Below the pieces are notes generated by a model. That model was not told the DNA's origin. It did not search any database and saw nothing but the letters and a program-made list of their open reading frames with translations. Both the position numbers and the translations under genes were made by a program. A stretch of 64,000 bases of DNA from the sequence record OK428535.1, one strand, 5' to 3'. This document shows positions 4,909 through 39,099 of the stretch, piece after piece. Origin of the DNA: Escherichia phage vB_EcoM_Lh1B. Position 1 is the first letter of the stretch; the number at the start of each line of letters is the position of its first letter.

Positions 4909-5769
4909 ATGTACAGTATTACAGATTTCATCAAAAATGCGGATTTCCTCCTACCTTCCGACCACGAAGTATTGGCTAGCGATCCGTTAACCGATGCGGC
5001 CATTGTCCAGCTGGACCGCGACAAACGTCGTACTTATGTCGTGTTGGTCGAAGGGCAGAGCTACGGCCTGTCTTCTTACGACCTGGAGCAGCAAGAGCGT
5101 TTCCTCGATGAAAACCGCAAAACGTCAATGTATAGCGCTATCTCGCGCGCGTTGTGCAAGGTAATGGCGACGATCACAGACAGCAAAAAACGCATTGCCG
5201 TGCTACAGGGTATCAATGCGNTAACGACCAAAATCCAACAACTTGAAGGTTTCCATTGCCCACGATTGGAAGCCGCACAGAAGGATGCTAAGGGCGATGA
5301 GGCCATGGCACTGTTTGAAGGCAATACTGTCTTTGCAACAGCTGAAGCTTGTTATCTCACCTATCCAACTTTTAACTATACGCCAATCAGCGACACCGTA
5401 GACGGGATTAAAGTAGAGAACGTCGTGCAATGGGGTCGTGCAAATCTCAAGTTTGTGATGTCCCATGAAGAAGAAAATCAAGACGGACTTGGACAGAAGA
5501 TTCAACGTTGGTTCACGGCGCGTTTGGACGCCAACTGGGAAGCGCATGTTAACGCAGAGCTTCGTAAATTTCACGCGGTAGTCGCATTGTTAAAAGAAGA
5601 CACACCTGCCCAGAAACAATCGAAGGCACCCGTGGTTGGCNGGNNGNGNTCCGGNTGNAACCNCAACCANGTCNCTACAGTACCGAGAACTCATCGCTAC
5701 ACTTCGCAGACGATGAACATTGCTTGCCCGGCTTGCGGTAAGATCAACGAAGTTGATTATAAACCGTAG
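4909..5769 (+). CDS. hypothetical protein (286 aa) with C-terminal CPACG motif
   Basis: ATG 5 nt after upstream stop; terminator directly downstream. Confidence 0.6.
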   Translation: MYSITDFIKNADFLLPSDHEVLASDPLTDAAIVQLDRDKRRTYVVLVEGQSYGLSSYDLEQQERFLDENRKTSMYSAISRALCKVMATITDSKKRIAVLQGINAXTTKIQQLEGFHCPRLEAAQKDAKGDEAMALFEGNTVFATAEACYLTYPTFNYTPISDTVDGIKVENVVQWGRANLKFVMSHEEENQDGLGQKIQRWFTARLDANWEAHVNAELRKFHAVVALLKEDTPAQKQSKAPVVGXXXSXXNXNXVXTVPRTHRYTSQTMNIACPACGKINEVDYKP

Positions 5770-23734: not shown

Positions 23735-23777
23735 GCCCTCTTCTCCTCCTGGAGAAGAGGCTTCTTATTTTTTTTAT
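23735..23777 (+). terminator. rho-independent terminator
   Basis: GCCCTCTTCTCC...GGAGAAGAGGC hairpin followed by long T-run. Confidence 0.7.
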
Positions 23778-23827
23778 TACGTCTACGTAAATTACTGTGT
23801 AAGCACGGCCCAAAAGGAATATAAAAA

Positions 23828-24466
23828 ATGCAATTACAATTTCGTCAACGGTCTGTACTACTACCGTTTAGCGCTATATTAGGTTCGTTTACCAAAATGC
23901 TGTCTGTGGATTTTACTGCAGCTGAGAAAGAAGCGCTGTTATTGGCGGCAGTCGAAGAAGTATTGTGGGAGGCGTTTTACGTAGTGCCGTTTCGTAGCTG
24001 CTTAAACGCCCCGTATGTTGAAGGGCAGTTTGTCAGCGCGCTTTCCGCTGCAATTACCAAACGTAAACTAAATGCCATGGCACACGTCAAAGAGATCACC
24101 GCGCAACGAGGACGGATATTCGCTACCGTCAGAAATGTGTTAATTAAAGAAGGGTTTCTTGCAGATGCGTTAGGTCCCGAAGTTCCTTGGGAACCAGGCC
24201 ATCCGCCGCGTCAGTTTGACCACGGGTACAAGTTAAGTATAATTATGCCACGCGGTAAGCGTGACGTCTCATTGGGGAAATGGTTACAGATAAGTTGGGT
24301 TCGTCCTACTATCGATTGGCAAGAAATGTCGGTCAATCGCTATCTGGAACACCTGGCAAAAACACCGGCACAGTTTCACCGTTCAACAATCCTGCCGCTA
24401 CACTTGCTGTTAAAACCGTCCCTGTCATTGGCAGAAGCCAGATACCTGCTTAGTGGAGAGAAGTGA
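23828..24466 (+). CDS. hypothetical protein (212 aa)
   Basis: ORF with AAGGAA RBS. Confidence 0.5.
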   Translation: MQLQFRQRSVLLPFSAILGSFTKMLSVDFTAAEKEALLLAAVEEVLWEAFYVVPFRSCLNAPYVEGQFVSALSAAITKRKLNAMAHVKEITAQRGRIFATVRNVLIKEGFLADALGPEVPWEPGHPPRQFDHGYKLSIIMPRGKRDVSLGKWLQISWVRPTIDWQEMSVNRYLEHLAKTPAQFHRSTILPLHLLLKPSLSLAEARYLLSGEK

Positions 24467-24948
24467 TGCTTGTTATTAATGTGGTCGAGGATAAGATTCC
24501 CGCGAATGTTTATCCTGAACTGGTTGAATGGGTGCGCGACTTAAACAGTATCCGCGAGGAGCCTATTAAACTCACGATGTTTGTTGAGGATGATATCGTG
24601 CGGGGAATCATGGCATGGGAACCTGGCCATTTGGTCTATATGGTTGTGCCCGAAGAATCGCGGCGGGGCGGTGTCGGCAGATTTATGCTTAAGTATCTTC
24701 AGCAGAACTCCGATCGTAAACACATCAGCTGTCGTGTTCACCCGACCAACATTCCCGCGCTAGGATTCTTTCACCAACAAGGCTTCCAGATTGACCGATG
24801 GTATATTGCTGCTGACGGCCAACGGTATTTTCGTATGACGAACTACAATGTTATTTCGTCACACACGCCGCCGGAGGAAAAGCTTTTAACTCATTACGCT
24901 GAAAGCGTTCCCATTTTTCTTTCGATGGCAGAAGGTCATTTCGTCTAA
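24466..24948 (+). CDS. GNAT-family N-acetyltransferase
   Basis: Motif A-like RRGGVGRFML and motif B-like ALGFFHQQGFQ; ATG overlaps upstream stop. Confidence 0.6.
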   Translation: MLVINVVEDKIPANVYPELVEWVRDLNSIREEPIKLTMFVEDDIVRGIMAWEPGHLVYMVVPEESRRGGVGRFMLKYLQQNSDRKHISCRVHPTNIPALGFFHQQGFQIDRWYIAADGQRYFRMTNYNVISSHTPPEEKLLTHYAESVPIFLSMAEGHFV

Positions 24949-24965
24949 ACGAGCGAGAGTGTATA

Positions 24966-25442
24966 ATGATACGTGTTGCTTACGAAACACGAGATACGGA
25001 TGGAACCCGTATAAACGTCATCCGCCGTGTGGAGCTTGTTCCTCAGCATGAACTGAATATTGCAGACAGTTCGCTTAGGGGCACTCCTGTTAAGATTCTG
25101 AATCTTACGAGATGTTCTTTTCATCACAGTAAGACATCACCAGCAATACGGTCCAGTAAAAGAAAAAGTTATGCCGATTTAAAACGTCGGTTGTCCCGGC
25201 ATTTTCGTCGGAGTGCCTGGAAGGCTTTAGTTGAGGTTTTGGTCGACGAGCACCTTNTCCAGAGGTTGGAGTGGGAAGAAGTTCTCAAGGAAGCGGGCTA
25301 TCCAACAAAACCTTTCTCTTATCACTGGCATCACTTCAAAAAACAGTTCCATGATGCCTTACAGGTATCGCCAAACACTCGCAACATGATTCACCGTTTG
25401 GAGAAAATGGACTGGCTTCTACCCTATCTGGAAGAGGACTAG
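24966..25442 (+). CDS. hypothetical basic protein (158 aa)
   Basis: ORF only. Confidence 0.45.
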   Translation: MIRVAYETRDTDGTRINVIRRVELVPQHELNIADSSLRGTPVKILNLTRCSFHHSKTSPAIRSSKRKSYADLKRRLSRHFRRSAWKALVEVLVDEHLXQRLEWEEVLKEAGYPTKPFSYHWHHFKKQFHDALQVSPNTRNMIHRLEKMDWLLPYLEED

Positions 25443-25444
25443 AT

Positions 25445-25834
25445 ATGATGCGTGCTGTATTAGCTGTGTTTATAATTTGCGTTACTACGTCAGTATACGC
25501 GTTTACTGTTCAGGACTTCCCGCAATACAAACCAATGTGGGAAACTGACGCACCTGTGAAATTCAGCGACAAAGATGAACCAGTCGTGTCGGTGGAGAAG
25601 GGTGAGTTTGCCGTGGTCAACTACGGACGTTCTGAACTGTGTCCAGGCGGTGGCTTTTATCTCATTAACACAAAGCGTAAGACGTACCAGCCGATAGATG
25701 CCGGTACGTGTTCGCCGAAAGTTAAAGCGACAATTGTCCCGTCAGTACGAACACATCGCAGCGTTAATACCCACCAGTTAACTTTTTGGGTAGGTAAAGA
25801 AATTTCCGCGCGGTATCCTTTGTACGATTACTAA
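25445..25834 (+). CDS. secreted or periplasmic protein (129 aa) with N-terminal signal peptide
   Basis: MMRAVLAVFIICVTTSVYA followed by a Cys-containing mature region. Confidence 0.55.
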   Translation: MMRAVLAVFIICVTTSVYAFTVQDFPQYKPMWETDAPVKFSDKDEPVVSVEKGEFAVVNYGRSELCPGGGFYLINTKRKTYQPIDAGTCSPKVKATIVPSVRTHRSVNTHQLTFWVGKEISARYPLYDY

Positions 25835-25842
25835 ACACAGCG

Positions 25843-25880
25843 TATAGGGGCTTCGGCCCCTATACTGTTTATTATTTTCC
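25843..25880 (+). terminator. rho-independent terminator (UUCG loop)
   Basis: TATAGGGGC-TTCG-GCCCCTATA followed by T-rich run. Confidence 0.65.
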
Positions 25881-25891
25881 TGTGAAGTATT

Positions 25892-26542
25892 ATGACCCCC
25901 TTAATCAAATACCAGGAGCGAGGCATGTCTTTTGTTATTGACTTTAACCNCCATCATAGTCAAACCTTGCTCGATTTAGTCAATGCTTTTAATGCTGAAA
26001 CCGTTTATACGCCCCTGACCACAGAACGTATCCGAGTGGAGAGTTATGGTCCACCGGAACCGGACGGTCGTGTAAGTGCTTTGCTGACTAATAAGAGTAA
26101 GCCAGATGACTATGTGGTTGTGCGTTACCGCAAATTGAGCTTAAATGATATAATCACGTTGAAGCCTGAACATCTCACATGGTTTGATTTGTCGAAAGGT
26201 AAACCGGCCGATTTGCGCGTATGGTCTGAACCTGCAATGGCCAGTTTTGAATCGGCGTGTGCAGAACGTGGCATCGTTGTAAGTAAGGCGTGGGAAAACC
26301 CCGCGCAATGCCACGTAGAGTACGACATCCCGACTGATCGATACGTCCTCGTCTATGAATGTGAATCATTTGTTTACGAATCGCGCACACGCATTACGCT
26401 ACCGTACCATATCGGCCAAGACTTAACCAAGACAACGTTGCCTGGTCTGGAATACGACTTGGCTGGTTTCTGGGGGCATAAGCTGTTAGAAGAAGTGACT
26501 ATCACGAAGCTTAACGGTTTTCGTTATCGTGAGTTTGTTTAA
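25892..26542 (+). CDS. hypothetical protein (216 aa)
   Basis: ORF; start uncertain. Confidence 0.5.
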   Translation: MTPLIKYQERGMSFVIDFNXHHSQTLLDLVNAFNAETVYTPLTTERIRVESYGPPEPDGRVSALLTNKSKPDDYVVVRYRKLSLNDIITLKPEHLTWFDLSKGKPADLRVWSEPAMASFESACAERGIVVSKAWENPAQCHVEYDIPTDRYVLVYECESFVYESRTRITLPYHIGQDLTKTTLPGLEYDLAGFWGHKLLEEVTITKLNGFRYREFV

Positions 26543-26547
26543 GACAC

Positions 26548-26590
26548 TACCCTCGCCCGTTTAGCGAGGGTAGGTATTTATTTTTTTCTT
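26548..26590 (+). terminator. rho-independent terminator
   Basis: CTACCCTCGC...GCGAGGGTAG followed by TTTATTTTTTT. Confidence 0.7.
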
Positions 26591-26623
26591 ACGAATCGTC
26601 CACTCCGTATAGGAGGTAAGTCC

Positions 26624-27223
26624 ATGAAAAAGATTTATAAAATTGCGGTAATCGGTTCTCGGAAGACTGATGAAGATACCATGTCTGAAATGTACATGCG
26701 ATTGTTACGTGGGTTTAATGCGCTGCACGCCAAAGATTACACGATTCATTTTTCTTCTGGCGGCTGCTGGTGTGGTCCAGACCAATTGCAATTCCGATTT
26801 GCCCGACAGTGGGCGAATACAATCGACCAAGATACCGGCAAGAAAGTGGTGTGGGATGATGAGTTCATTTGTTACCTACCCGATGAGAAAAAGCTCTGGC
26901 TCAAGAAACAGAATCCCAACGTAGAGTTCCGTGTAATCCCTCAGGATGACCGCTATCGTGAGATAGTAGGTAAGCTTCATCCCGCCCCACAAAAGCTCCA
27001 GGAGTTCGCCTGGGCGCTTCATGGCCGTAATCTGAATATAATTATGGGCGATGATTTAGCAACGCCTGTAGACGCAGTTTATTACTCTGCGCCTTTAGAT
27101 AAACAAGGTAATCCGACCGGCGGTACTGCCATGGGCGTGAAATACGCTAAGCAGTGTGGTATTCCTTGTTACCACCATGCGCTTGAAGGACATCTGTGGC
27201 TTGAGAGCTTGTGCTTATTATGA
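26624..27223 (+). CDS. SLOG / DprA(Smf)-like Rossmann-fold protein
   Basis: KIAVIGSR near the N-terminus, FSSGGCWCGPD and PTGGTAMG glycine motifs recall DprA/LOG/YpsA families. Confidence 0.45.
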   Translation: MKKIYKIAVIGSRKTDEDTMSEMYMRLLRGFNALHAKDYTIHFSSGGCWCGPDQLQFRFARQWANTIDQDTGKKVVWDDEFICYLPDEKKLWLKKQNPNVEFRVIPQDDRYREIVGKLHPAPQKLQEFAWALHGRNLNIIMGDDLATPVDAVYYSAPLDKQGNPTGGTAMGVKYAKQCGIPCYHHALEGHLWLESLCLL

Positions 27224-27253
27224 CCACGTTGCCTTTAATCAGAGGTCGCTATT

Positions 27254-27526
27254 ATGCAAACTACCAGTTTAGCTNGTCGTTTGTGGGAAGCATTNTTCCC
27301 TACNCCGNCAAAACCCATTAAGAAGGTGACTAGCCTTCGCTTGTTCCCAGGCACCGAGGATGAGTTCTTCGATTACCTGGAACNCCNCGGTTTTGATTCG
27401 AAAGTCNCACCACAAGAAAATGACCCAATTCAGACAGTTTACACCACGCCGGATACGGGAGAGATATTTGCCTTGTGTGTTCGATGGCCACATCGCAACT
27501 ACTACTATACTTTGACGCAGATGTAA
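27254..27526 (+). CDS. hypothetical protein (90 aa; N-rich)
   Basis: ORF only. Confidence 0.4.
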   Translation: MQTTSLAXRLWEAXFPXPXKPIKKVTSLRLFPGTEDEFFDYLEXXGFDSKVXPQENDPIQTVYTTPDTGEIFALCVRWPHRNYYYTLTQM

Positions 27527-27536
27527 GGAGCAGGGG

Positions 27537-28670
27537 ATGTCGACGCTCGATTTAGATTTAGAAGTCCTGACTGACGACTACGATCGCCTGGTCGCACTCG
27601 AAGGTCTGGGAGTTAAGCCCGACTTCCCTGCGGTTTGCGCGATCCGTCAGCGTTGGTGCTTAACCGACGACGGTGAAGATATGTTGGTTGCTCGTGAATC
27701 GCGCGAAGCGANGGAGCGTGCTCAGTTTATGACTGATACTGACCCGCGGGCTGGCATCCATCGCGCAGCAGGGCGCATTACTGCGAAAGCTGTTAAAGGT
27801 ACTGGAAAGTTAGTGGGTGCTGGACTAGGTGCAACCGCAAAGGGCGCGGGTAAACTTTCGAAAAAGCTCGCATTACGCTTTTACGATTTCGCGGAAGCGC
27901 TAGCGAAAGAACAAGCCGACCGTTTGAAAGAAATAACTTCGAAAGCTGCTTTCATGGAACGTAAGCTCAATAAGCTTAAAACGCGAATGTCGCTGCTAGA
28001 TGACCACAAAACACTCGCTGCGGTCGACGTTCACACGAGTAGCTGGACGTCTAAAATTTGCTTTGAAGATCGACCCGATTTTGAAGCGTGTGTTAAGTTT
28101 TCTAAACAAACAAACGCGTACGAAGGCGTCGTGCAAAAGTACACGGTTTACACACGCACCGCTCTGAAGAAAAGCAAAGCATTCGAAGGGCCGGGCTTAA
28201 AACAAATCAGCAAGTCCACGAACTGGGCAGTTAAGCGTGCTGCTGGGTTGCTTGGCATCATCGATCCCTTTAAAAAGGTGGAAGCTTTTCCTGTCCCTGG
28301 AAATATCGTTGTGGTTGAGCACCATAGTGGTAAAGTCAGTTGGGCAATTGCGCGTGACGGTGAGTATGGTGAAACCATTAAATCGCTGGATATGCATCAG
28401 TGTGGGAAAGCATTAGAGGCTGTGGAAGCACTTATCAAATCTATTGCTGCACGTGGAACAAAGAACCGTGTTGTGGGCTACACCGGCATTTACGAAGAAG
28501 TGGAAGCGATGAAGTCCGAGCTTAAGAACCTAGAAGGGGATGAGCTGAAGGAGGCCACGTTACGTTACCGTAATGCAATGGCGATGGAAGACGCTTTCAC
28601 CACGGCATTGGTACGTGTGGCGGAGGGTCTAATGGAATGGACGAAGCAATCGCTGGCCGAGGTGAACTGA
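27537..28670 (+). CDS. hypothetical protein (377 aa)
   Basis: Long ORF; GGAG RBS. Confidence 0.6.
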   Translation: MSTLDLDLEVLTDDYDRLVALEGLGVKPDFPAVCAIRQRWCLTDDGEDMLVARESREAXERAQFMTDTDPRAGIHRAAGRITAKAVKGTGKLVGAGLGATAKGAGKLSKKLALRFYDFAEALAKEQADRLKEITSKAAFMERKLNKLKTRMSLLDDHKTLAAVDVHTSSWTSKICFEDRPDFEACVKFSKQTNAYEGVVQKYTVYTRTALKKSKAFEGPGLKQISKSTNWAVKRAAGLLGIIDPFKKVEAFPVPGNIVVVEHHSGKVSWAIARDGEYGETIKSLDMHQCGKALEAVEALIKSIAARGTKNRVVGYTGIYEEVEAMKSELKNLEGDELKEATLRYRNAMAMEDAFTTALVRVAEGLMEWTKQSLAEVN

Positions 28671-29131
28671 TGAAGATTATTACCATAGTGGGGCCAGACA
28701 CGGCTAACGGCAGGAAATATTCCACAGATATCCTCGCGCTTTATAACGAGCTGGACAAAAGCGAAATAGAAAGCTATCGAAAAGAGACGGGTATTAATGT
28801 CCGTTTTACGCCGGCTAAATCGTTAGCCGAGCGCTTCCGGGGTCGTTTACTGGCGGTCGTGGACGACGGTGTCTTGTATGGCTTTGCGCAATACCGCACG
28901 ATGACTGAAGAGGGTGTGACGATGATGTCGGTATCCTCACTGGTCGTTAGCAGCAGCGCACGTGGTAAAGGTTACGGCACCGCGTTGATGGATGCGGTAA
29001 AGAAATCCGCAACGGAAAAAGGGTGTACAGTTGTTCACCTGTCCGTGAACGCCGGTAACGCTGCCGCGAAGTCGCTCTACGACAAAGCTGGCTTTAAGGT
29101 AGGTGCTTACCAGATGTATTGGAGGGTGTGA
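28670..29131 (+). CDS. GNAT-family N-acetyltransferase (tandem paralogue 1)
   Basis: SARGKGYGTALMDAV and SLYDKAGFKV motifs; ATG overlaps upstream stop (TGATG). Confidence 0.65.
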   Translation: MKIITIVGPDTANGRKYSTDILALYNELDKSEIESYRKETGINVRFTPAKSLAERFRGRLLAVVDDGVLYGFAQYRTMTEEGVTMMSVSSLVVSSSARGKGYGTALMDAVKKSATEKGCTVVHLSVNAGNAAAKSLYDKAGFKVGAYQMYWRV

Positions 29132-29595
29132 TGAAAATTGTTTTTGTCACCAAGCCCAACTCTCCGTATGGAAAGAAATACTACGCGGACTTGTTAGGAC
29201 TACACAACAAGTTATACGACGATCAGAAAATAAAACTTGCCGACTTAAACGGTCGTGAAGGGTTTAATCAAATCTCAAAACTGGAGGAGGTTTGGGGTGA
29301 AGGTACGCTGTGCGCTTGCGCCGTTGATGACCGTGGTGTGGCTGTTGGTTTCATCACCTTTGGCTACACCAAAAAGGGACAACGTTTCCTCTGGGTATAT
29401 AACTTTTTTGTAGATGAATCGGTTCGTTCACAAGGCGTTGGCCATGAACTGATCGAAGCCGTAGAGAACTATGGCAAATCAAAAGGCTGCGCATGGATGC
29501 AGCTTAACGTGCTCGGTAATAACGACCGTGCTATTGCGTTTTATGAACGTTTCGGATTCCGAACTGAATACCAGGATATGGTAAAGGAGCTTTAA
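29131..29595 (+). CDS. GNAT-family N-acetyltransferase (tandem paralogue 2)
   Basis: VRSQGVGHELIEAV and AFYERFGFR motifs; N-terminus MKIVFVTKP parallels MKIITIVGP of the neighbour. Confidence 0.65.
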   Translation: MKIVFVTKPNSPYGKKYYADLLGLHNKLYDDQKIKLADLNGREGFNQISKLEEVWGEGTLCACAVDDRGVAVGFITFGYTKKGQRFLWVYNFFVDESVRSQGVGHELIEAVENYGKSKGCAWMQLNVLGNNDRAIAFYERFGFRTEYQDMVKEL

Positions 29596-29596
29596 C

Positions 29597-30205
29597 ATGG
29601 TGGCTGTCCGCAGCGTGCCACATCAGACTGGCTCGCGATATACTTTTTGTGTAAAGCGTTTCGGGGCAAGAAATCGCCCTGGTTGGAAGGTGGTACGTGC
29701 GATGGGACAGTTCTGGCAATTACCACCTGGCACGTTAAAATATTTTTCAGTAGACAGAATAACCCGGTTCTTAAACGCGGCTGACCCAAGTCAACGCTCC
29801 AGTTTTATGGCAGGGATCGTTTGTCGTCCCGATGGGAAAACACGCGATGCAACCACTCGTGGAATCTACTGGACAGGACAGAACGCGTTTCAGGTTGGCT
29901 TACCTTGCCTGAAGTGTGAAGTGACACCGTTTAATGGTCCCTACGCCGATGCGCACTTCACCGGTATCTTTGTGTCGTTCCCAGACGACCCGTCTTTAAA
30001 CTACTTTTTATCAGTGGACAAAGACGTCAGTATTGATACCTTTTACAAATACTTGTTGTTTTACAGCCGGTATATCCGCGTGACTCCTGTGCATGAAGAT
30101 TGGTATTATAAAAATCCCTTGAACTATGGGAGGGACAGGAGACTAGAAGGATGTTCTATCGAGAGCTTCAACTCTGTACCGCAGCGCTCCATGGCGCTAA
30201 TGTGA
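29597..30205 (+). CDS. hypothetical protein (202 aa)
   Basis: ORF; start uncertain. Confidence 0.45.
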   Translation: MVAVRSVPHQTGSRYTFCVKRFGARNRPGWKVVRAMGQFWQLPPGTLKYFSVDRITRFLNAADPSQRSSFMAGIVCRPDGKTRDATTRGIYWTGQNAFQVGLPCLKCEVTPFNGPYADAHFTGIFVSFPDDPSLNYFLSVDKDVSIDTFYKYLLFYSRYIRVTPVHEDWYYKNPLNYGRDRRLEGCSIESFNSVPQRSMALM

Positions 30206-30522
30206 GCAAGAACGGGGACCTGGAAGACGTCGCGCAAGCCTTACGGGCTGTGTCGGAGGTTGACCAGGTCGACATCGACGCTAAGTATTTAGGCGGCGGT
30301 GTAAAGCGTATTCAGTTGACCGTGCGAGCCAAACATGGCAGCTGCTCGTTACATTTTCGAGTCAGTGCGGATTATTTCCTGGTACTGCGCTCCACATTCA
30401 GTCACGATGGTCGGACTCACCGGGTTCGGTGGATGCACGACATTACTAAATTTGGCTACCCGCTTGCAGAACAACGTAAAGTCGTACATGACTTTATGGC
30501 TGCAGTCGTTGCGGGGTTTTAA
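30151..30522 (+). CDS. hypothetical protein (123 aa)
   Basis: ORF overlapping the upstream gene by 55 nt. Confidence 0.4.
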   Translation: MFYRELQLCTAALHGANVSKNGDLEDVAQALRAVSEVDQVDIDAKYLGGGVKRIQLTVRAKHGSCSLHFRVSADYFLVLRSTFSHDGRTHRVRWMHDITKFGYPLAEQRKVVHDFMAAVVAGF

Positions 30523-30531
30523 GGGGAGACT

Positions 30532-31131
30532 GTGATGTCTGAGATGATTCTCGATTCGCTGTTTTTGATTACGGTTGCAAACATCAATAAAAACGGCAAT
30601 CTTCCAGAATACGTAGACATAAGTCGTCATGGCTTTAAGCGTCGTTATCAAATCGGTAAGGTACTAGAGATTGCCTGCTTAGTAACGAACATGCGTAGAC
30701 CGGTGGAAGGCTGTAGCGTTAAACATGCACAGATGATACTCGGGCGTGCTATTTCAGAAGTACGTCGTAAGCGTCGTCGTGCACCGTATCGCTTTTATCC
30801 TAACTCCACCAAACAGGTGGTCGGTGAGGGGGAAGGTGTGGTTGATTTGCGTGAGGCCAGTTGTAATGTAGGCGGTATTGCACGTGACTGGTTAATGAGC
30901 ATTATCAGTAAGCATCCACGTACACCTACGCCGCAAGAAGGACAGGCGGTACTCGCACTTATGCGTAAGACCCATTTGGTGATTACTGATACACCAAACC
31001 AGGCAGCACGAATGCAGCACTATTTGGCATGTCGTGGCTTCACCACACTTGCAGTACCTTCTGAATACACAGCTGATATTAAACTTCCGCCAGTCCCAGA
31101 TTGGTCTGAACCGACAGTTGATCATCAGTGA
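30532..31131 (+). CDS. hypothetical protein (199 aa)
   Basis: ORF; terminator downstream. Confidence 0.5.
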   Translation: MMSEMILDSLFLITVANINKNGNLPEYVDISRHGFKRRYQIGKVLEIACLVTNMRRPVEGCSVKHAQMILGRAISEVRRKRRRAPYRFYPNSTKQVVGEGEGVVDLREASCNVGGIARDWLMSIISKHPRTPTPQEGQAVLALMRKTHLVITDTPNQAARMQHYLACRGFTTLAVPSEYTADIKLPPVPDWSEPTVDHQ

Positions 31132-31137
31132 GTTATA

Positions 31138-31175
31138 CCCACTCCTTCGGGAGTGGGTCGACTCTATTTTTTTTG
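31138..31175 (+). terminator. rho-independent terminator (UUCG loop)
   Basis: CCCACTCC-TTCG-GGAGTGGG followed by T8. Confidence 0.7.
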
Positions 31176-31197
31176 GATAGATGTTATCTTAGGGAGA
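31172..31197 (+). promoter_or_regulatory. promoter-like palindromic element, copy D (GGATAGATGTTATCTTAGGGAG)
   Basis: Same motif family; upstream of gene 31292. Confidence 0.45.
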
Positions 31198-31291
31198 CGT
31201 GCAAAAATTACGTTTCATCCTTAGCATATGCTAGAAGCCGTTGTGAGTCGGTTAAAACTCACCAACTTAAACTTAAAAGCGAGTAAACAAA

Positions 31292-32056
31292 ATGTCAAAA
31301 CTCAATAAAGCAGCAACCAAAGAATGGCTTTCCGTACCTACCGCAGATGGTCAGTATCGCTACGTATTCACGTATGACGAAAATGACCTGACGGCAAAAG
31401 GTATTCCGCACATGTTAAGTCACAAACTGATTAACAGCGTGACCGGTGCCACCTTAGTAGGTTCCGGCGGAAGGACAATCTTTTGTGCCCCCAGTTGGGA
31501 TCAAACTGAACTGACCAAGAAAATGCTCGGTGAACTCCGGGCGGTTTCCGCACGTCTGTTCTTTAAGCTGATTGCCAGAAAACCGGCGCTATGGGATGCA
31601 TGGTCTCAACACAATCTCGAGGCATTGCGTGGGGAGTGTCTGAATTACGTATTGGTCGAAGAAGTGATTGATAACTTCTTCGCTAACGTGATGAAAACCG
31701 AACGACTGCGTAAGCCGAACACCGACGGTTATTCGTTTGTCTCCGTTAAGAGCAGCGAACTGATTCGGGGTGAGTTTGCAGGGCATGTCCTTTCGGTAAC
31801 TCGGAACCTGAGTTTCTTTGGCCAGCCTTTCAGTGAGCCAGTTGTTCAGGTAACTTATGATTTCCGTTTACCGTTTACTGTTCGGAATGAGTTTGACCCA
31901 GGTCAAGTTTCGTTGAAGTTTTTATATCCTCTCCAGTCATGGCCGTTATTGAAGAGGTTCTTAGCTGAGCCCCGTGTAGCTGCGGTGCTGCAAGCGTGGA
32001 TTGATTCATGGCCAGAAGGCATTGAGGAAAAATCGAAAACGCGAGTTGACTTCTAA
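31292..32056 (+). CDS. hypothetical protein (254 aa)
   Basis: ORF; terminator downstream. Confidence 0.55.
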   Translation: MSKLNKAATKEWLSVPTADGQYRYVFTYDENDLTAKGIPHMLSHKLINSVTGATLVGSGGRTIFCAPSWDQTELTKKMLGELRAVSARLFFKLIARKPALWDAWSQHNLEALRGECLNYVLVEEVIDNFFANVMKTERLRKPNTDGYSFVSVKSSELIRGEFAGHVLSVTRNLSFFGQPFSEPVVQVTYDFRLPFTVRNEFDPGQVSLKFLYPLQSWPLLKRFLAEPRVAAVLQAWIDSWPEGIEEKSKTRVDF

Positions 32057-32062
32057 GTAAGC

Positions 32063-32098
32063 TAGGCACTCTTCGGAGTGCCTATTATTTTTTTTCTT
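32063..32098 (+). terminator. rho-independent terminator (UUCG loop)
   Basis: TAGGCACTC-TTCG-GAGTGCCTA followed by T-run. Confidence 0.7.
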
Positions 32099-32159
32099 TA
32101 CGTATGCTCGCTATATTGTGACACCACTACAATTAATTAAACTTTTGGGGAAGAATAAA

Positions 32160-32783
32160 ATGTTAAACTCAGTGGCGCTGGATGGTCCAGATTTTTCTGG
32201 CAAATCAACACTCGCGAAAATGATTCAAGCGATGTTGCGCTCCGCTGGCGTTAATGTCATCATCGTCAATCACCCGACGAATACCACTGAAGCCGGTATT
32301 AGTGCACGTTCTCTGGTTATCCAGCACGCTTCTAACGAACGCATTGCTAAAGCGATGTGTCTGGATTTCCAATACACGATGGATTTCGTTGTACCAGAGC
32401 ACGATGTCGTTATTTTTGACCGTTTTTGTCAATCGACTATTGTCTACCAGGGCGTCGATGGTAAAGGGGAAGTTTTCCGTTCGCGGGTATTAGACCACAT
32501 TAACGCACCAAAGCTTTACGTGGCAACCGATGTATCTTACGAAACCGCCACAGAACGCTTTAAGAAGCGCGTAGAGGCACAAGGTAAGAACTGGGATGAT
32601 GAGGTACTGACAGCGAAGTATCTGCGCTCACAGACCGATTGGGACGCCTTACGCGACCATTACCGTTTTGCTTTCCACATCACCACAGATGGCGGCGATA
32701 AGTTCCCGCTGATGCGTGTTACGGCTGACGACGATATAGCCTTACAAGCCGCCCGTATCGTTGAACGTATTCTGGCAGGTTAG
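32160..32783 (+). CDS. thymidylate kinase-like P-loop nucleoside monophosphate kinase
   Basis: P-loop GPDFSGKST and DRF...STIVYQG resemble Tmk Walker A and DRY/LID region; ATG 32160 preferred over the GTG at 32118. Confidence 0.5.
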   Translation: MLNSVALDGPDFSGKSTLAKMIQAMLRSAGVNVIIVNHPTNTTEAGISARSLVIQHASNERIAKAMCLDFQYTMDFVVPEHDVVIFDRFCQSTIVYQGVDGKGEVFRSRVLDHINAPKLYVATDVSYETATERFKKRVEAQGKNWDDEVLTAKYLRSQTDWDALRDHYRFAFHITTDGGDKFPLMRVTADDDIALQAARIVERILAG

Positions 32784-32789
32784 TTGTAC

Positions 32790-32828
32790 CCCTCTTACCT
32801 TCGGGTAAGAGGGCATTGTCTTTTTTTA
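32790..32828 (+). terminator. rho-independent terminator (UUCG loop)
   Basis: CCCTCTTACC-TTCG-GGTAAGAGGG followed by T7; same hairpin as at 5777. Confidence 0.7.
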
Positions 32829-32871
32829 CAGATCAGAACAGTCCTATGCTTTTTGCTTCCAGTCCACTAAA

Positions 32872-32902
32872 TTTCAGATATATATTACTTAGGTGAGAGT
32901 TG
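32872..32902 (+). promoter_or_regulatory. early-promoter-like element, copy B
   Basis: TTTCAGATATATATTACTTAGGTGA plus conserved leader into the RBS. Confidence 0.5.
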
Positions 32903-32947
32903 CTCGTAAACTCTCTAATCGACTATTAATCTAAAAGGAGTATTCTA

Positions 32948-33313
32948 ATGCGTTTTAAACATCAAACCGTTGTGTTGGCAAAGAAAGCATTTCTGGTTCG
33001 TCTCTCTTACATTATTNCTCGTGTCACTGCGAAGGATGTTACGCAGAAAGACATTGCATTGTTGGTAGGCNGNTNNCCNNCACAAANNTNTGNGNTTAAA
33101 AATGAACGCGAGAAAGCCGTGACTATCGAAACTCTGATGCGTGTTGCCGATACACTGCGCCTGAATTACGAAATCGTTTACCGTTCCATCAACGGCAAAT
33201 GCCGCCATAGCTTCAAAATTGAATCCTGCATCGACTACATGAATAACTGTCCTATCCGGGTACGAGAAACAGGACTTAAAGTCATGGCACGTAAACCTTC
33301 TGCAGTGATGTAG
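32948..33313 (+). CDS. XRE-family helix-turn-helix transcriptional regulator
   Basis: VTQKDIALLVG ... TIETLMRVADTLRLNYEIV fits the Cro/C1-type HTH pattern; N-containing. Confidence 0.5.
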   Translation: MRFKHQTVVLAKKAFLVRLSYIIXRVTAKDVTQKDIALLVGXXXXQXXXXKNEREKAVTIETLMRVADTLRLNYEIVYRSINGKCRHSFKIESCIDYMNNCPIRVRETGLKVMARKPSAVM

Positions 33314-33324
33314 GGAGCAAACGT

Positions 33325-33711
33325 ATGAATTGGTATGTGAGCGGTATCACCCGTCGTGTAATGACGGAAGAGGATGATCGATGTAAACATCTTAAAGTGG
33401 GGTCTATAGCTCCACGTTATACGGCAGAGTGCGACCCATGGGGCCGCGAAACGTATTACATGTGCGAGAACTGCTGGGAAAAANTGCNGGNNNAAATNGN
33501 NGNTGAAGAAGTGGTNTGCGNCGATTGCAAAGGTACCTTCCCGAAACGGGATACTGTTGNGNGGAAATGGCACGACTTTGACCCCAGTCAAGGGGATAAA
33601 GAACTTTGTATCTGTAATAACTGCGTGTCTTTACCGACACATTTAAACCGTGTAGAGAATGACCGTCGGGCATTTGAACACGACTTTCCAGAAGCAGCTT
33701 TCTGGGATTAA
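33325..33711 (+). CDS. Cys-rich putative zinc-binding protein (128 aa)
   Basis: Several CxxC-like pairs (CENCW, CxDC, CICNNC); Ns present. Confidence 0.45.
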   Translation: MNWYVSGITRRVMTEEDDRCKHLKVGSIAPRYTAECDPWGRETYYMCENCWEKXXXXXXXEEVXCXDCKGTFPKRDTVXXKWHDFDPSQGDKELCICNNCVSLPTHLNRVENDRRAFEHDFPEAAFWD

Positions 33712-34247
33712 CTAGTATAACCCTTAAGGAGTATATCATGGCGAAGGCCCCTAAAACTGTAGCAAAAGATTCAATGGCAAGCAACGCGATTAAAGCCACA
33801 AAAACGCGTACTACCGAATTTCCACGTTCACCTACCATTCCTAAACCGGATGTAATTGTACCAATCAGTGAACGTCTGAAAACGATTCACATCGAACGTG
33901 AATTTCCGATTGACCTTGGTCAGGAAATCGTTGCGGTTAATCTTGGTAGTGATGTCCGCTTTACTATCTACAAGGGATTAACTAGTGTAAACCTTAAGGA
34001 GTATATCATGGCGAAGGCCCCTAAAACTGTAGCAAAAGATTCAACGGCAAGCACCGCGACTAAATCTGCAAAAACGTCTACTACAGAATTTCCACGTTCA
34101 CCTACCATTCCCAAACCGGATGTAATTGTACCAATCAGTGAACGTCTGAAAACAATTCACATCGAGCGCGAATATCCGATTGACCTTGGTCAGGAAATCG
34201 TTGCGGTTAACCTTGGTAGCGACGTACGCTTTACCATCTATAAAGGC
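33708..34247 (+). repeat. tandem direct duplication, 2 x 270 bp
   Basis: Units 33708-33977 and 33978-34247 are near-identical, each including RBS, ATG and first 80 codons. Confidence 0.85.
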
Positions 34248-34664
34248 GCGCATCTGAACAACATGGTGCTAACCCGTGGTGATGAAGTTATCGGTCTGTC
34301 TCGTTACGACACGCAAATCGAAAACATCTATCCGGTGTTTGCAGTAGCGATGTTGCGTTTGTTCATGCAGGATAAAGCCGACCTTTGTGGTCAGCTTGCG
34401 GGTATGGCGGATCGTGTTGGTCATATTCTGCCGACGCTGGTGAAACTGTACCCAGTTACGATTGACGTGGCGTTTACTACTGTAGACAACAACCACGGTT
34501 ATATCGTGCTGACCAAAGACGGTAAAGTTATCGCTGGTAATCTGACTGATAACGAAGTGCAGAAGCATATGGACAAATTTGCGTTCATGGTGAATCGCTT
34601 GGCGCACGTCAGTGTCAAACATTCTGAAACTTGGACGACGCTTGTCTCCAAACCTGAACTGTAA
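33738..34664 (+). CDS. hypothetical protein with duplicated N-terminal 80-aa module (308 aa; alternatively 34008-34664)
   Basis: Copy 1 reads in frame through the duplicated RBS into copy 2. Confidence 0.5.
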   Translation: MAKAPKTVAKDSMASNAIKATKTRTTEFPRSPTIPKPDVIVPISERLKTIHIEREFPIDLGQEIVAVNLGSDVRFTIYKGLTSVNLKEYIMAKAPKTVAKDSTASTATKSAKTSTTEFPRSPTIPKPDVIVPISERLKTIHIEREYPIDLGQEIVAVNLGSDVRFTIYKGAHLNNMVLTRGDEVIGLSRYDTQIENIYPVFAVAMLRLFMQDKADLCGQLAGMADRVGHILPTLVKLYPVTIDVAFTTVDNNHGYIVLTKDGKVIAGNLTDNEVQKHMDKFAFMVNRLAHVSVKHSETWTTLVSKPEL

Positions 34665-34668
34665 TCAT

Positions 34669-34698
34669 TAAGGGGTCTTCGGACCCCTTAATTTTTTG
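34669..34698 (+). terminator. rho-independent terminator (UUCG loop)
   Basis: TAAGGGGTC-TTCG-GACCCCTTA followed by TTTTTT. Confidence 0.7.
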
Positions 34699-34723
34699 TC
34701 TTTTTACGCGTTATCCTCATGTT

Positions 34724-35752
34724 GTGACAGCATTACCTTTTGAGGGCATTACAATGAAAACTGTGGCTAAATTGTTCCGCAGCAGCATTCGCTCTGCCGA
34801 GTTCCAAAATAACGTCGGTACCGATACTGTACGAGCACGCCGCCTAAAAGAGTTTCTAAAGGACGAGACTTATTCTGTTTACGTGGTACGGAATAAAGAA
34901 ACCTGGGAGGGTTATTTAGTGGCCACCTATCGACACGGTGACCCTACACTAACCTGTCACTATTTTGAGGAGTTTGTACCTGGGGCATTCGATAAAGTTG
35001 GTTTAGCCCTTGTGCTCGACCACACAGGCTTCGAATATATGTCGTGCCCGGCACCTACTGGCGATGTTGAACAAAAACTGGTCGAAAAAGGGTTTGTTCT
35101 TTCAGATATCGTCTGGGCATGTCATTCTAAACTGTTTGATAAAGTAATAACTGCATCGGAAATCAAGATTATTTCTGGTGACGCATACGCAGAACTTTCC
35201 AAGGACGACAAAGACGTTATCCTGAATCTGGTCAGTGGTGCAATTTGCGAAGAGCTAGAGTACGATGTGCGCGGCCACTATACGCACATTGGTCCGTTAG
35301 CAGAAACAGTAATAGCAAGAATTCAGCACGCTAATGTGGAAACCGCGATTNGGCNNNACGGGCGTGATATCGTCGGCATTGCCCAAATGCGTTTGGTCGC
35401 GCCAGGCGTCGTTGAACTTTCTGGCTTGACGGTTGCACCTACGCATCGTAAACGTGGCATTGGTCGCCGGTTAATGGGCGCGCTATTCGATTTCGCACAA
35501 CGTCACTCCGACCAAGTCTATATTGAAACAGCTGCTGATAATAATCCGGCAAATCATCTGTATGGCAACATTCTGCGTTGCAAACAGGTACTGCGTACGC
35601 TAACGTTGAAACGCGACCCNGAGCTTATNAGNTGGAAANGNGNAAAAGGGAACCGCGCCGACCGAGTGCTGAAAGAAGAACCTNGCCTCCCGGTGGAGAC
35701 CAACCCCAGACCAACGATTAATGACATGTTTCAATCTGGCATGAGAGGATAG
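34724..35752 (+). CDS. two-domain protein with C-terminal GNAT acetyltransferase domain
   Basis: HRKRGIGRRLMGALFDFA and NNPANHLYGN in the C-terminal third. Confidence 0.55.
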   Translation: MTALPFEGITMKTVAKLFRSSIRSAEFQNNVGTDTVRARRLKEFLKDETYSVYVVRNKETWEGYLVATYRHGDPTLTCHYFEEFVPGAFDKVGLALVLDHTGFEYMSCPAPTGDVEQKLVEKGFVLSDIVWACHSKLFDKVITASEIKIISGDAYAELSKDDKDVILNLVSGAICEELEYDVRGHYTHIGPLAETVIARIQHANVETAIXXXGRDIVGIAQMRLVAPGVVELSGLTVAPTHRKRGIGRRLMGALFDFAQRHSDQVYIETAADNNPANHLYGNILRCKQVLRTLTLKRDXELXXWKXXKGNRADRVLKEEPXLPVETNPRPTINDMFQSGMRG

Positions 35753-35758
35753 TAACGG

Positions 35759-36577
35759 ATGATAAGACCAATTTTAAAATGGATGGGTGGTAAGAGTCGT
35801 GTACTGTCCGAGCTTCTACAGGTGCTTCCGGATGCTGAGTATTTCGTTGAACCGTTTGTGGGTGCAGGGTCAGTGTTTTTAAACACTAAATACCCGAACT
35901 ATATTCTCGGCGNCACGAACCCGGACTTAATCGAGTTACTAACCATGGCGCGCGATCGTCCGGAAGCATTGATACTGGAAGCAAAGGCGCTCTTTGCAAA
36001 TGGGCTGGACCGCGGTCTGTACATGAAACGGNGNGNNGAAAAAAACAANGAGACAACCNCGGGGAAACCTAATNTCCAGCGCGCTGCGATGTTCCTGTAT
36101 CTTACACGTCATGGTTACAACGGCTTGTGCAGATACAATCAGTCGGGTGGGTTTAACGTNCCCTATGGTCAACATCCGAACGGTGTCTATTTCCCTGAAG
36201 AGGAAATTCTGGCGTGGGCAAAACGTTGTTCGGAAACTAACGTNGAGCNGCTCTGCGCCGACTTCCGCGACATCCTAAATAAGTGCCCATCTAACGCAGT
36301 GATATACGCTGACCCGCCATACATCCCACTTTCGGATACGGCTAAACATGCGCAGTATCACAGCAAGGAATTTTCACAAGCTGACCACCGCGAGTTAGCG
36401 AAACTTTTAAAACAACAAGCTGCCGATGGCAATAAGGTCGTTCTGTCAAACGCAGATACGTTACTCACACGTGACATCTACTACGGTTTTACCTGGCGTG
36501 AAGTTCAGGTGGGCCGATATATGTCCGCCGATGCGAATAAACGTAAAGCGGTGACAGAGCTAATCGGCACCTTATAA
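35759..36577 (+). CDS. dam: DNA adenine (N6) methyltransferase, Dam family
   Basis: VEPFVGAGSVFLNT (AdoMet site), GYNGLCRYN and catalytic DPPY all present and collinear with E. coli Dam. Confidence 0.88.
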   Translation: MIRPILKWMGGKSRVLSELLQVLPDAEYFVEPFVGAGSVFLNTKYPNYILGXTNPDLIELLTMARDRPEALILEAKALFANGLDRGLYMKRXXEKNXETTXGKPNXQRAAMFLYLTRHGYNGLCRYNQSGGFNXPYGQHPNGVYFPEEEILAWAKRCSETNXEXLCADFRDILNKCPSNAVIYADPPYIPLSDTAKHAQYHSKEFSQADHRELAKLLKQQAADGNKVVLSNADTLLTRDIYYGFTWREVQVGRYMSADANKRKAVTELIGTL

Positions 36578-36586
36578 GGTACCAAC

Positions 36587-37390
36587 ATGCAACTATTTAA
36601 TCTATACGGTATGGACAAAAATGACCTGACCGTAGAGTTTAGTGGTCGATTGACCACCTTGGGGCAACTCCGTGAACGGATTCAAGATTTGCGACCCGTC
36701 GCAGACCAAGAAGATGATCATTGGTTAGTGTTGAGCAATAGCGGTCGTGCGCAAATGTATTTTCGTGGATGTCGTTCAGGTATTGTTTACTACATCTACG
36801 AGTTGCACGTGCTTTCCGAGCCCCTGTTCCACGAGTGGAAGCGTTTAACGCGACTCCTGGAAGTGCAGATGCTTGATATTACCTGTTTTCCGCATGACAC
36901 CGAACATGCGGCATTGTACCAACGTCTGGGGTTCGAAGCTGTAACGAAGCGTGTGGAGATTACTGTCAGTCCGAAATACGGTTTTACGTCAGACCCATCG
37001 GTTGTCCCGTTGGAGACATTGTCATTAGAACAAACCCAAGATGTTTGCTATCTAATGCGACCCNCNCTAAAAGACGCAGGAACGCGTGAGATGTTGGGTG
37101 AATTAGCAAATGGTTTTGTCTCTGCGTTCGTGGGGTTGCGCGGTCAGAAACCGTTTTCATTAATGCTTTATAAGGAGTTCCCGAAGAGCATCATTACTGA
37201 GCAATTCTGCTGCCAAACTTTTGACCCGATTGCCTACTCGGTAGAGTTTCTAAAACACCACCACGCCATTTTGCATTTGGCGGGACAGAAAGGTAAGAAG
37301 GTCAACATGGGTGTTGCGATAGAGCACGAGTTTCCTTCTATCGAAGGGTTAGAGTATCGTGTAATCACGCATCACTACACCCTTGCGTAA
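36587..37390 (+). CDS. hypothetical protein (267 aa), possible acetyltransferase-like fold
   Basis: ORF; weak LYQRLGFE motif only. Confidence 0.5.
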   Translation: MQLFNLYGMDKNDLTVEFSGRLTTLGQLRERIQDLRPVADQEDDHWLVLSNSGRAQMYFRGCRSGIVYYIYELHVLSEPLFHEWKRLTRLLEVQMLDITCFPHDTEHAALYQRLGFEAVTKRVEITVSPKYGFTSDPSVVPLETLSLEQTQDVCYLMRPXLKDAGTREMLGELANGFVSAFVGLRGQKPFSLMLYKEFPKSIITEQFCCQTFDPIAYSVEFLKHHHAILHLAGQKGKKVNMGVAIEHEFPSIEGLEYRVITHHYTLA

Positions 37391-37399
37391 GGAGAGAAT

Positions 37400-38212
37400 A
37401 TGCTGAGAGTTATCGAACGCACGGAGAGGATTCTGGACCGAACGTGGTTGGAAGACCGTAAAGCGTTATCGTTGTTAAATGATATCGATCCTTCCACGTT
37501 ACAAGATGAACGTCGTCTTTACTACCGAATCTTTGAAGTGTTCAGTCGGGACACAGTTGCGCCTGATGCGATTGTGCTCTGTCTGGACCACGGATACATG
37601 TTAGAAGTTATCAACATGGTTCGTGCTTTAGACGCCCAGTTAACCTCGCTTGCGGATGCTTTACTCCGCTCGGCGGGGTGTAACTACGCGATGCATTTTA
37701 CTCGTTCGGAAGGGGACGAATATGCTCGCATGGGCTTTTGTTGCGAAACGATAAACTACCGCAAAATTAATACATCGGTGCCTAGCCACGATGAGGATTT
37801 CTGTGGGGATGTCAGTTCGTTGTTCGATAGTAAGAAAGCGTTCTTGGATTGGGTTAGAATGCTTTACGGTACAAGCTCTATCTACTCAACGCTCGTTATG
37901 GGTGGGAGGCTGATGTCGTGGCGGAACGCCGATAGCTACAAGTTGACAGTGCTCTCACATCGTGGACAACGCTGGGTTATTGGTGGATGGTTTACCGCAG
38001 AAGGGGTGGTTACCCTAAGCCGTGAGGAGTTCGGACTGTTGATGCATTGTATCCAATCCGAATTACCGGTGGGGGATGAATTAGTTTACACTTACCACCA
38101 ATATACTGGGGGACCAGCCGCAATGTGGTTATTAGAAAACGGTTGGCTACCCGAAAGTTATGTGTACGGACGTGCCCTGAAAACTACTAATGGAGAAAAT
38201 AATGCAAATTAA
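37400..38212 (+). CDS. hypothetical protein (270 aa)
   Basis: ORF. Confidence 0.55.
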   Translation: MLRVIERTERILDRTWLEDRKALSLLNDIDPSTLQDERRLYYRIFEVFSRDTVAPDAIVLCLDHGYMLEVINMVRALDAQLTSLADALLRSAGCNYAMHFTRSEGDEYARMGFCCETINYRKINTSVPSHDEDFCGDVSSLFDSKKAFLDWVRMLYGTSSIYSTLVMGGRLMSWRNADSYKLTVLSHRGQRWVIGGWFTAEGVVTLSREEFGLLMHCIQSELPVGDELVYTYHQYTGGPAAMWLLENGWLPESYVYGRALKTTNGENNAN

Positions 38213-39007: not shown

Positions 39008-39045
39008 TGCCTCCTTGCCCACGGGTAAGGAGGTCCCTTTTTATT
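39008..39045 (+). terminator. rho-independent terminator
   Basis: CCTCCTT...AAGGAGG hairpin followed by TTTTTATTT. Confidence 0.6.
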
Positions 39046-39099
39046 TACATCAGTCCACTAACTTATGTGAAACAACCCACGTAAAGAGGAATTAAGAGA

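Follow-up and report, generated by a model that had tools for sequence, protein, structure and literature searches.

Gene content of the region

The window analysed here is a stretch of 64,000 nucleotides from Escherichia phage vB_EcoM_Lh1B (record OK428535.1), and the region in question, positions 24466-37390, carries a group of genes for acetyltransferases of the GNAT superfamily. All genes of the region lie on the + strand and correspond to gp84 to gp109 in the numbering of Salmonella phage SPN3US, which is followed below; gpX denotes an extra gene of the block. A GNAT was called where a product scored above the gathering cutoff of Pfam PF00583 (20.7 bits), and motif A (Q/R-x-x-G-x-G/A), the acetyl-CoA pyrophosphate-binding loop, was read from the translations. 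By these two sequence measures the block holds four genuine GNAT genes:

24466-24948, + strand: gp88 orthologue, a single-domain GNAT of 160 amino acids (aa), motif A RRGGVG, Pfam 26.2 bits
28670-29131, + strand: gpX, an extra small GNAT of 153 aa, motif A RGKGYG, Pfam 63.7 bits
29131-29595, + strand: gp95 orthologue, a small GNAT of 154 aa, motif A RSQGVG, Pfam 65.0 bits
34754-35752, + strand: gp104 orthologue, a two-domain protein with a C-terminal GNAT domain (Pfam match at residues 211-280, 49.5 bits; motif A RKRGIG) and an N-terminal half without sequence match

Motif A has the form R-x-x-G-x-G in all four. The start of gp88 is given as 24463 or 24466, and the probable start of gp104 is the ATG at 34754 within the open reading frame 34724-35752, where every orthologue begins. 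The original prediction had described the region as GNAT-rich, with at least five clear GNAT genes and a possible sixth at 36587. The region is indeed rich in GNATs, and Pfam profiles place four products in the GNAT superfamily, with its fold. The number of clear GNAT genes confirmed by Pfam and motif A is thus four, fewer than the five or more claimed. As for the gene at 36587 (gp106), its product has no Pfam or NCBIfam match and no motif A, although a medium-confidence model of it has a two-domain GNAT fold.

The reading preferred here, with a probability of about 0.55, is that the region is a conserved non-structural gene block of an SPN3US-like jumbo phage that encodes four independent acetyl-CoA-dependent N-acetyltransferases from three operons, and that the tandem pair gpX and gp95 acts on small amines. 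Each of the four enzymes would use acetyl-CoA as donor and acetylate a primary amine on an acceptor of its own. The sequence analysis establishes the domains, which motifs are present or absent, synteny, the limits of the operons and the identity to characterised proteins; what is said below of acceptors, expression timing and benefit to the phage is what we infer.

Searches with the NCBIfam models (RimI, aminoglycoside, streptothricin, arsinothricin, PaiA and others) gave matches that all lie far under the curated cutoffs. The RimI model TIGR01575 scores 23.2, 47.6, 43.2 and 33.7 bits against a cutoff of 86.4, and the best match to the aminoglycoside and streptothricin resistance models reaches 32.4 bits against 140. 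Among the SpeG, PaiA and SSAT models, PaiA is the sole match, with 23.6 bits against 250. The aminoglycoside and RimI families, which had been put forward as possible homes for these enzymes, are thus not borne out by the profile scores. No GNAT was matched by the PADLOC defence models, where Dam alone was found, by methyltransferase models.

Conservation of the block

The region is 97.1% identical in DNA sequence, end to end, to Escherichia phage vB_EcoM_EC001 and 95-97% identical to about 30 other Seoulvirus records, with SPN3US at 95%, while Erwinia jumbo phages show 60-80% identity. The source phage is an SPN3US-like (Seoulvirus), phiKZ-related jumbo phage. SPN3US itself, a giant phage related to phiKZ, encodes RNA polymerases of its own as well as a diverged homologue of chimallin. 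A gene-by-gene comparison shows that the order gp84-gp109 is kept in Seoulvirus, Machinavirus, Erskinevirus and Wellingtonvirus, and the sole differences in order are local insertions or deletions: gpX, the missing gp103-gp104 of phiEaH2, and extra small genes in Wellington. The guanine-cytosine (GC) content of the block is 0.44-0.49, the same as in its flanks and in the rest of the window. Pfam and other scans of the region found no integrase, transposase or other mobility gene and no flanking tRNA.

Public phage genomes already list these genes as acetyltransferases, with products 92-100% identical to those of the window, and the GenBank records of EC001, SPN3US, JN03 and Proteus phage 7 label them GNAT or acetyltransferase. 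The SPN3US RefSeq record has four annotated acetyltransferases, three of them inside a stretch of 10.5 kb and the remaining one at 172.5 kb. By a rough estimate, the clustering is mildly non-random (p ~0.03 against random placement). The distant gene, which lies outside the window (NC_027402, 172536-173024; 162 aa), is ~75 kb off and near a gene for a macro-domain protein.

Transcription units

Intrinsic terminators with stems of 9-11 bp and mostly TTCG loops divide the region into units, namely gp87-gp88-gp89-gp90; gp91; gp92-gp93-gp94-gpX-gp95-gp96-gp97-gp98; gp99; the thymidylate kinase gene tmk; gp101-gp103; and gp104-Dam-gp106-gp107-gp108-gp109. The terminators are as follows:

25842-25865, + strand: terminator closing the gp87-gp90 operon (10-bp stem, TTCG loop, T-run)
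~31139-31174, + strand: hairpin and T-run after gp98, closing the operon with gp94, gpX and gp95
32063-32084, + strand: intrinsic terminator after gp99
34667-34692, + strand: terminator directly upstream of gp104 (11-bp stem, TTTTTTG), marking the start of the gp104-gp109 operon
39009-39034, + strand: intrinsic terminator closing the gp104-gp109 operon

As judged from these hairpins and from the tight junctions between genes, the four GNATs are spread over three operons, and since strong terminators bound them, the GNATs do not form the single module that had been proposed.

The strong terminator hairpins are directly followed by a T-tract and then by (T/A)TAC(G/A), for example TTTTTTTCTTACG. 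The sites of terminator plus motif are:

23737-23782, + strand: terminator and T-tract motif
26547-26593, + strand: terminator and T-tract motif
32063-32102, + strand: terminator and T-tract motif
32790-32830, + strand: terminator and T-tract motif
34667-34707, + strand: terminator and T-tract motif
39009-39049, + strand: terminator and T-tract motif

The pattern occurs six times on the + strand, five times directly after a terminator, and once on the - strand, where shuffled sequences lead one to expect about one per strand. All + strand copies fall within 23.7-39 kb, and a further T-tract with TTACG behind the terminator at 34667 was seen by eye and missed by the pattern. The motif may represent a class of promoters of a phage polymerase fused to the terminators, and if so, the operons would belong to one temporal class. 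A scan for sigma-70 promoters gave 19 matches against 23.4 in shuffled sequence, which is what one would expect of a phage that brings RNA polymerases of its own.

The tandem pair gpX and gp95

The products of gpX and gp95 are 34% identical over 149 residues (E 1e-20) and both begin with MKI, so that the earlier description of the genes as adjacent paralogues with parallel N-termini holds. Directly upstream lies a gene to which the pair is coupled:

27537-28670, + strand: gp94 orthologue, internal head protein of 377 aa, translationally coupled to the GNAT pair

The gp94 stop codon and the start codon of gpX overlap in the sequence TGATG, and both the gp94/gpX and the gpX/gp95 junctions read TGATGAA(A/G)AT and are preceded by a Shine-Dalgarno sequence. 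The adjacency of gp94 and gp95, overlapping or nearly so, is found in all four SPN3US-like genera. The match of gp94 to the Pfam family phiKZ_IP is weak (E 1.3e-3, under the cutoff), and the name internal head protein is that of RefSeq. Peptides of gp94 were found by mass spectrometry of SPN3US heads (PMC10052503).

The gp95 product is 100% identical to SPN3US YP_009153389. Its positional orthologues include phiEaH2 YP_007237670 (72% identity) and vB_EamM_Caitlin gp103 YP_009292176 (53%), both of which led to the accumulation of N-acetylspermidine in Escherichia coli without speG (Li et al., PNAS 2023, PMC9992855). By synteny and 72% identity, gp95 is therefore an orthologue of a biochemically verified spermidine N-acetyltransferase. 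It shares with the phiEaH2 and Caitlin enzymes an intact motif A and a conserved motif B tyrosine. In contrast, the identity of these enzymes to gpX is just 26-32%. In a search with the gp95/gpX family profile, the best match in the Protein Data Bank (PDB) is the 1,3-diaminopropane/polyamine acetyltransferase Dpa (PDB 8a9n, 8a9o; E 2.5e-16), and PaiA, SSAT2 and thialysine acetyltransferases also stand high in the list. Polyamines are the best-supported acceptor class for gp95 and gpX because of the biochemistry of the orthologues and the nearest solved relatives. The two proteins would belong to a jumbo-phage-specific family of small GNATs whose Erwinia-phage members acetylate spermidine, and their most likely substrates during infection are polyamines, diamines or small amines of a similar kind, each enzyme with its own acceptor preference.

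Several points weigh against this reading. The SPN3US protein YP_009153389, identical to gp95, gave no N-acetylspermidine above background in the same speG-less assay (PMC9992855), and for this reason the polyamine reading is held at moderate confidence. The Seoulvirus gp95 may use another acceptor, or may have failed to express in the assay. The E-value of Dpa is only slightly ahead of those of many other GNATs, and no NCBIfam polyamine model reaches its cutoff for the window GNATs. As no NCBIfam model at all scores above cutoff, no specific enzyme family is established. Farther along the block, the structural model of gp104 is poor, and that of gp106 has low confidence in its N-terminal half.

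At 12 positions, H90Y and D129G among them, Seoulvirus gp95 departs from both active enzymes. Residue 129 is G (VLGNN) in the Seoulvirus-lineage proteins and D (VLDNN) in all four Erwinia-phage genera, and residue 90 is Y or S in the Seoulvirus lineage and H in both spermidine-active enzymes. H90Y and D129G may be the reasons for the negative spermidine assay of SPN3US gp95 and are candidates for it. The SPN3US-type gp95 is inactive on spermidine and the orthologue with 72% identity acetylates it, a contrast that provides a short list of candidate specificity residues and is one of three remaining leads.

The gpX gene is absent from SPN3US and most Seoulvirus strains, which carry gp95 alone. 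It is at least 99% identical in three phage records, 1252, JN03 and EC001 (100% in EC001), and versions with 85% and 76% identity occur in other SPN3US-like contigs at the same position, with gp95 still next to them; in one of these contigs the neighbouring genes are ~70-80% identical to those of the window. The presence of gpX at 76-85% identity in the same tandem position implies that it is older than the species. Deeper relatives form a cluster of 47-49% identity with a shared C-terminal signature, FKVGxYxMYW, and a scan of viral contigs for the 47-49% relative gave no match. An exhaustive HMMER search revealed no closer relatives of gpX anywhere outside its own subfamily. The next full-length matches span residues 1-143/144 at 32-36% identity, a level like that of gp95, and align with gp95 orthologues. 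We read gpX as a tandem paralogue of gp95, ancient in origin and lost repeatedly: the pair would stem from an old duplication, and gpX would later have disappeared from most Seoulvirus strains, SPN3US included. The TGATGAA(A/G)AT repeats at the junctions would allow its precise deletion. As a second, strain-variable subfamily, gpX is one of the remaining leads.

The single-domain acetyltransferase gp88

The gp88 product matches phrog_7861 (E 2.7e-78) and is identical at 158 of 160 residues, full-length, to the 'Putative acetyltransferase' of PDB entry 7DQG (E 3e-108). SPN3US gp88, the protein of 7DQG, and the window gp88 are of the same family and at the same genomic position, and differ by two conservative substitutions, I/V and H/Q. 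Identity to the other genera is 50-61%. A crystal structure of an SPN3US N-acetyltransferase with acetyl-CoA, showing a novel dimer, comes from a 2022 study (Ki et al., J Microbiol, PMID 35781628) as cited in PMC12328618; according to that citation, the authors of the structure suggested that N-terminal acetylation takes part in assembling the capsid or in proliferation of the phage. We take the window gp88 to be the acetyl-CoA-binding dimeric GNAT of structure 7DQG.

gp104, gp106 and gp107 around Dam

The operon that begins with gp104 continues with three genes that are considered together with it:

35759-36577, + strand: Dam (gp105), PF02086 E 2.4e-48, PADLOC orphan methyltransferase E 1.4e-79
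36587-37390, + strand: gp106 orthologue, predicted two-domain GNAT fold, no acetyl-CoA motif
37400-38212, + strand: gp107 orthologue, no family match, possible two-domain GNAT fold

In the proposed arrangement, gp104, with one active-looking GNAT domain, would be co-transcribed with Dam and gp106, and gp106 would have the same predicted two-domain GNAT architecture with the acetyl-CoA motif lost; gp107 may be similar. Genes gp104 and gp106 are carried by SPN3US-like phages alone (58 and 63 phage records, respectively). Between genera, identity is 28-29% for gp104, 26-43% for gp106 and 24-48% for gp107, against 52-67% for Dam.

The products of gp106 and gp107 have no Pfam match, splitting gp106 into halves brings up none in Pfam or NCBIfam either, and nothing relevant was found in Pfam at E<=10 for the N-terminal half of gp104 or the halves of gp106 and gp107. 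Motif A is lacking in gp106 and gp107 and in all of their orthologues that were compared, and BLASTP detects no similarity between the two. When domain alignments of 5-9 orthologues were compared profile to profile, mutual matches were confined to the known GNATs. Weak motif-B-like matches (E 2e-3 to 8e-3, probability <15%) came from the N-terminal halves of gp106 and gp107 and are not counted as evidence alone; that of the gp107 half to GNAT motif B has an E-value of 4e-3.

The AlphaFold model of gp106 has a mean pLDDT of 60.7; its C-terminal half reaches ~80, its N-terminal half 30-50. A Foldseek search of viral models with it returns full-length matches to gp106 orthologues first and next to those of gp104 in Erwinia phages Kwan (E 4e-10) and Derbicus (E 4e-9). 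A further match is the 256-aa phiEaH2 protein J7KKF1 (E 4.7e-5), which equals the gp107 orthologue G173_gp030 in length and may be the same protein. The gp104 model has a pLDDT of 49, and the order of secondary structures in its N-terminal half is GNAT-like; the assignment of this domain goes by analogy with gp106. Among tandem-GNAT proteins, the gp106 model aligns with MshD, MAB_4324 and VipF over 149-170 residues. In contrast to that structural likeness, the sequence identity of gp106 to tandem-GNAT proteins (MshD, MAB_4324, VipF, clavulanate ORF14, Eis) is 7-9%, gp106 is without an acetyl-CoA motif in both halves, and the models are of low to medium confidence. MshD consists of one degenerate and one active GNAT domain, and gp104 shows a similar pairing, with a domain of unassigned sequence family joined to a catalytic-type GNAT.

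The conclusion from these models, held at moderate confidence, is that both gp104 and gp106 are built of two GNAT-type domains and that the acetyl-CoA loop is kept only in the C-terminal domain of gp104. Possibly, on weak evidence, gp107 is a third two-domain protein with the GNAT fold. As it lacks the acetyl-CoA motif, gp106 is probably not an acetyl-CoA enzyme, being either non-catalytic or dependent on another donor. All public records list gp106 and gp107 as 'hypothetical'. The series of two-domain GNAT-fold proteins (gp104, gp106 and possibly gp107) around Dam is a new, if modest, point; they look like an expansion of such proteins and make up a further lead.

In the C-terminus of gp104, the sequence SG-x-RG is conserved in the Seoulvirus-lineage orthologues. 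The gene is mosaic: it is 97.3% identical to that of the SPFM and SPLA3 phages and 91.9% to that of EC001 and SPN3US, though the region as a whole is nearest to EC001. Mom-family GNATs can occur in jumbo phages (PMC7824862), and a Mom-like DNA modification by gp104 beside Dam was considered and found no support, as gp104 matches generic acetyltransferase models only.

Alternative explanations

The main rival to the acetylation of small amines is that of host proteins, whereby one or more of the GNATs would modify the host RNA polymerase (as Rac of phiKMV does), ribosomal proteins or a defence protein (as the anti-CRISPR AcrVA5 does) and so redirect or disarm the cell in the course of host takeover or anti-defence. 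RimI is among the best NCBIfam matches of gpX, gp95 and gp104, but at 33-48 bits it is well short of the cutoff of 86.4. N-terminal acetyltransferases are among the PDB matches. The fast divergence of gp104, gp106 and gp107 relative to Dam fits host-driven selection. A comparative study predicted that jumbo-phage GNATs act like Rac of phiKMV or ribosomal-protein acetyltransferases (PMC7824862), and the authors of the spermidine study proposed that polyamine depletion may blunt CRISPR and restriction systems (PMC9992855). Against these points, no GNAT is matched in PADLOC, the genes are in three operons and not in one module, and the 13 SPN3US genes that amber mutants newly revealed as essential include no GNAT. 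A role in host manipulation is plausible for individual enzymes; as an explanation of the group, it is possible but less probable than the preferred reading. A modification of the virion, in which the GNAT pair would acetylate head proteins such as gp94 at the N-terminus or at lysines and thereby aid assembly or ejection, is unlikely. It would account for the constant neighbourhood of gp94 and gp95 in the four genera and for their TGATG coupling in the window, and it agrees with the capsid-assembly or proliferation role that the gp88 structure study is cited as proposing (PMC12328618). However, in the more distant jumbo phages FBKp24 and Moabite the homologous small GNAT lies among small genes and tRNAs with no head gene beside it, and the gp95 orthologues acetylate spermidine. 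Moreover, gp88, gp95 and gp104 are unmentioned in the SPN3US virion proteome papers and the one supplement searched, a silence which suggests that they are not virion proteins.

The original prediction had also pointed to toxins and to an accessory island. GNAT toxins of the TacT/AtaT/ItaT type would acetylate aminoacyl-tRNA and stop host translation, and the window GNATs resemble these and KacT in fold and in their small size (153-160 aa). Size and superfamily membership are the only points in favour, and in contrast, there is no specific sequence similarity, antitoxin partner or toxin-antitoxin context. TacT, AtaT, KacT and ItaT are not among the PDB sequence matches at E<1e-3, nor among the best 60 matches of the gp95/gpX profile search, all of which have E<=2e-9. 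No neighbour, from the 377-aa head protein to the proteins of 202, 212 and 158 aa, matches a Pfam antitoxin family. In addition, E. coli BL21 served as expression host for the orthologues in the metabolite assays (PMC9992855), and the genes are conserved in strictly lytic phages. The toxin reading is largely refuted and is the least probable of those considered. Hardly more credible is the recent arrival of all the GNATs at once on an accessory or mobile island. The variable presence of gpX among strains, the differing gp99 allele and the 270-bp duplication in gp103 would suit it, but gene order is kept in four genera, GC content is uniform, there is no integrase, transposase or flanking tRNA, and gpX relatives occur in SPN3US-like contigs only and always at the same position. 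Of the GNATs, just gpX is strain-variable. The island is refuted for the block as a whole, which shows gene-sized insertions and deletions only.

The earlier picture, be it of an island, of a set of toxins or of one module, is thereby corrected to one of conserved jumbo-phage gene content in three operons, with the small-amine acetyltransferases gpX and gp95 as the preferred reading of the pair. The discovery value is small, since the genes are annotated publicly, one has a crystal structure and one family has already been tested for polyamine acetylation.

Other features of the region

Besides Dam, a nucleotide-metabolism gene had been noted near the GNATs, and both are present:

32160-32783, + strand: thymidylate kinase (Tmk), found in the Pfam scan

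The gp99 position (31292-32056) looks like the site of an allelic replacement: the encoded protein is 100% identical to that of EC001 and 40% to that of SPN3US, whereas on either side the genes share 97-100% identity with both phages. The gp103 orthologue (33738-34664) contains a 270-bp tandem duplication at 33704-34240 (2.0 copies, 92% match) that comprises the first ~90 codons and the ribosome-binding site; its product has 308 aa here and in EC001, and 218 aa in SPN3US.

The 64-kb window contains 259 N bases, singly or in short runs, with some 2-kb bins free of them, and they appear as X in many translations, including those of gp104, Dam and gp106. Between gp93 and gp94, additional small genes occur in related phages: one in Logan contig SRR17247030_36169 (8535-8858) has a match to BubE (PF20137), and one in Machina (5029-5388) is annotated 'putative ammonia monooxygenase'. 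A second gp94-like internal head protein is present in phiEaH2, pEa29 and Wellington.

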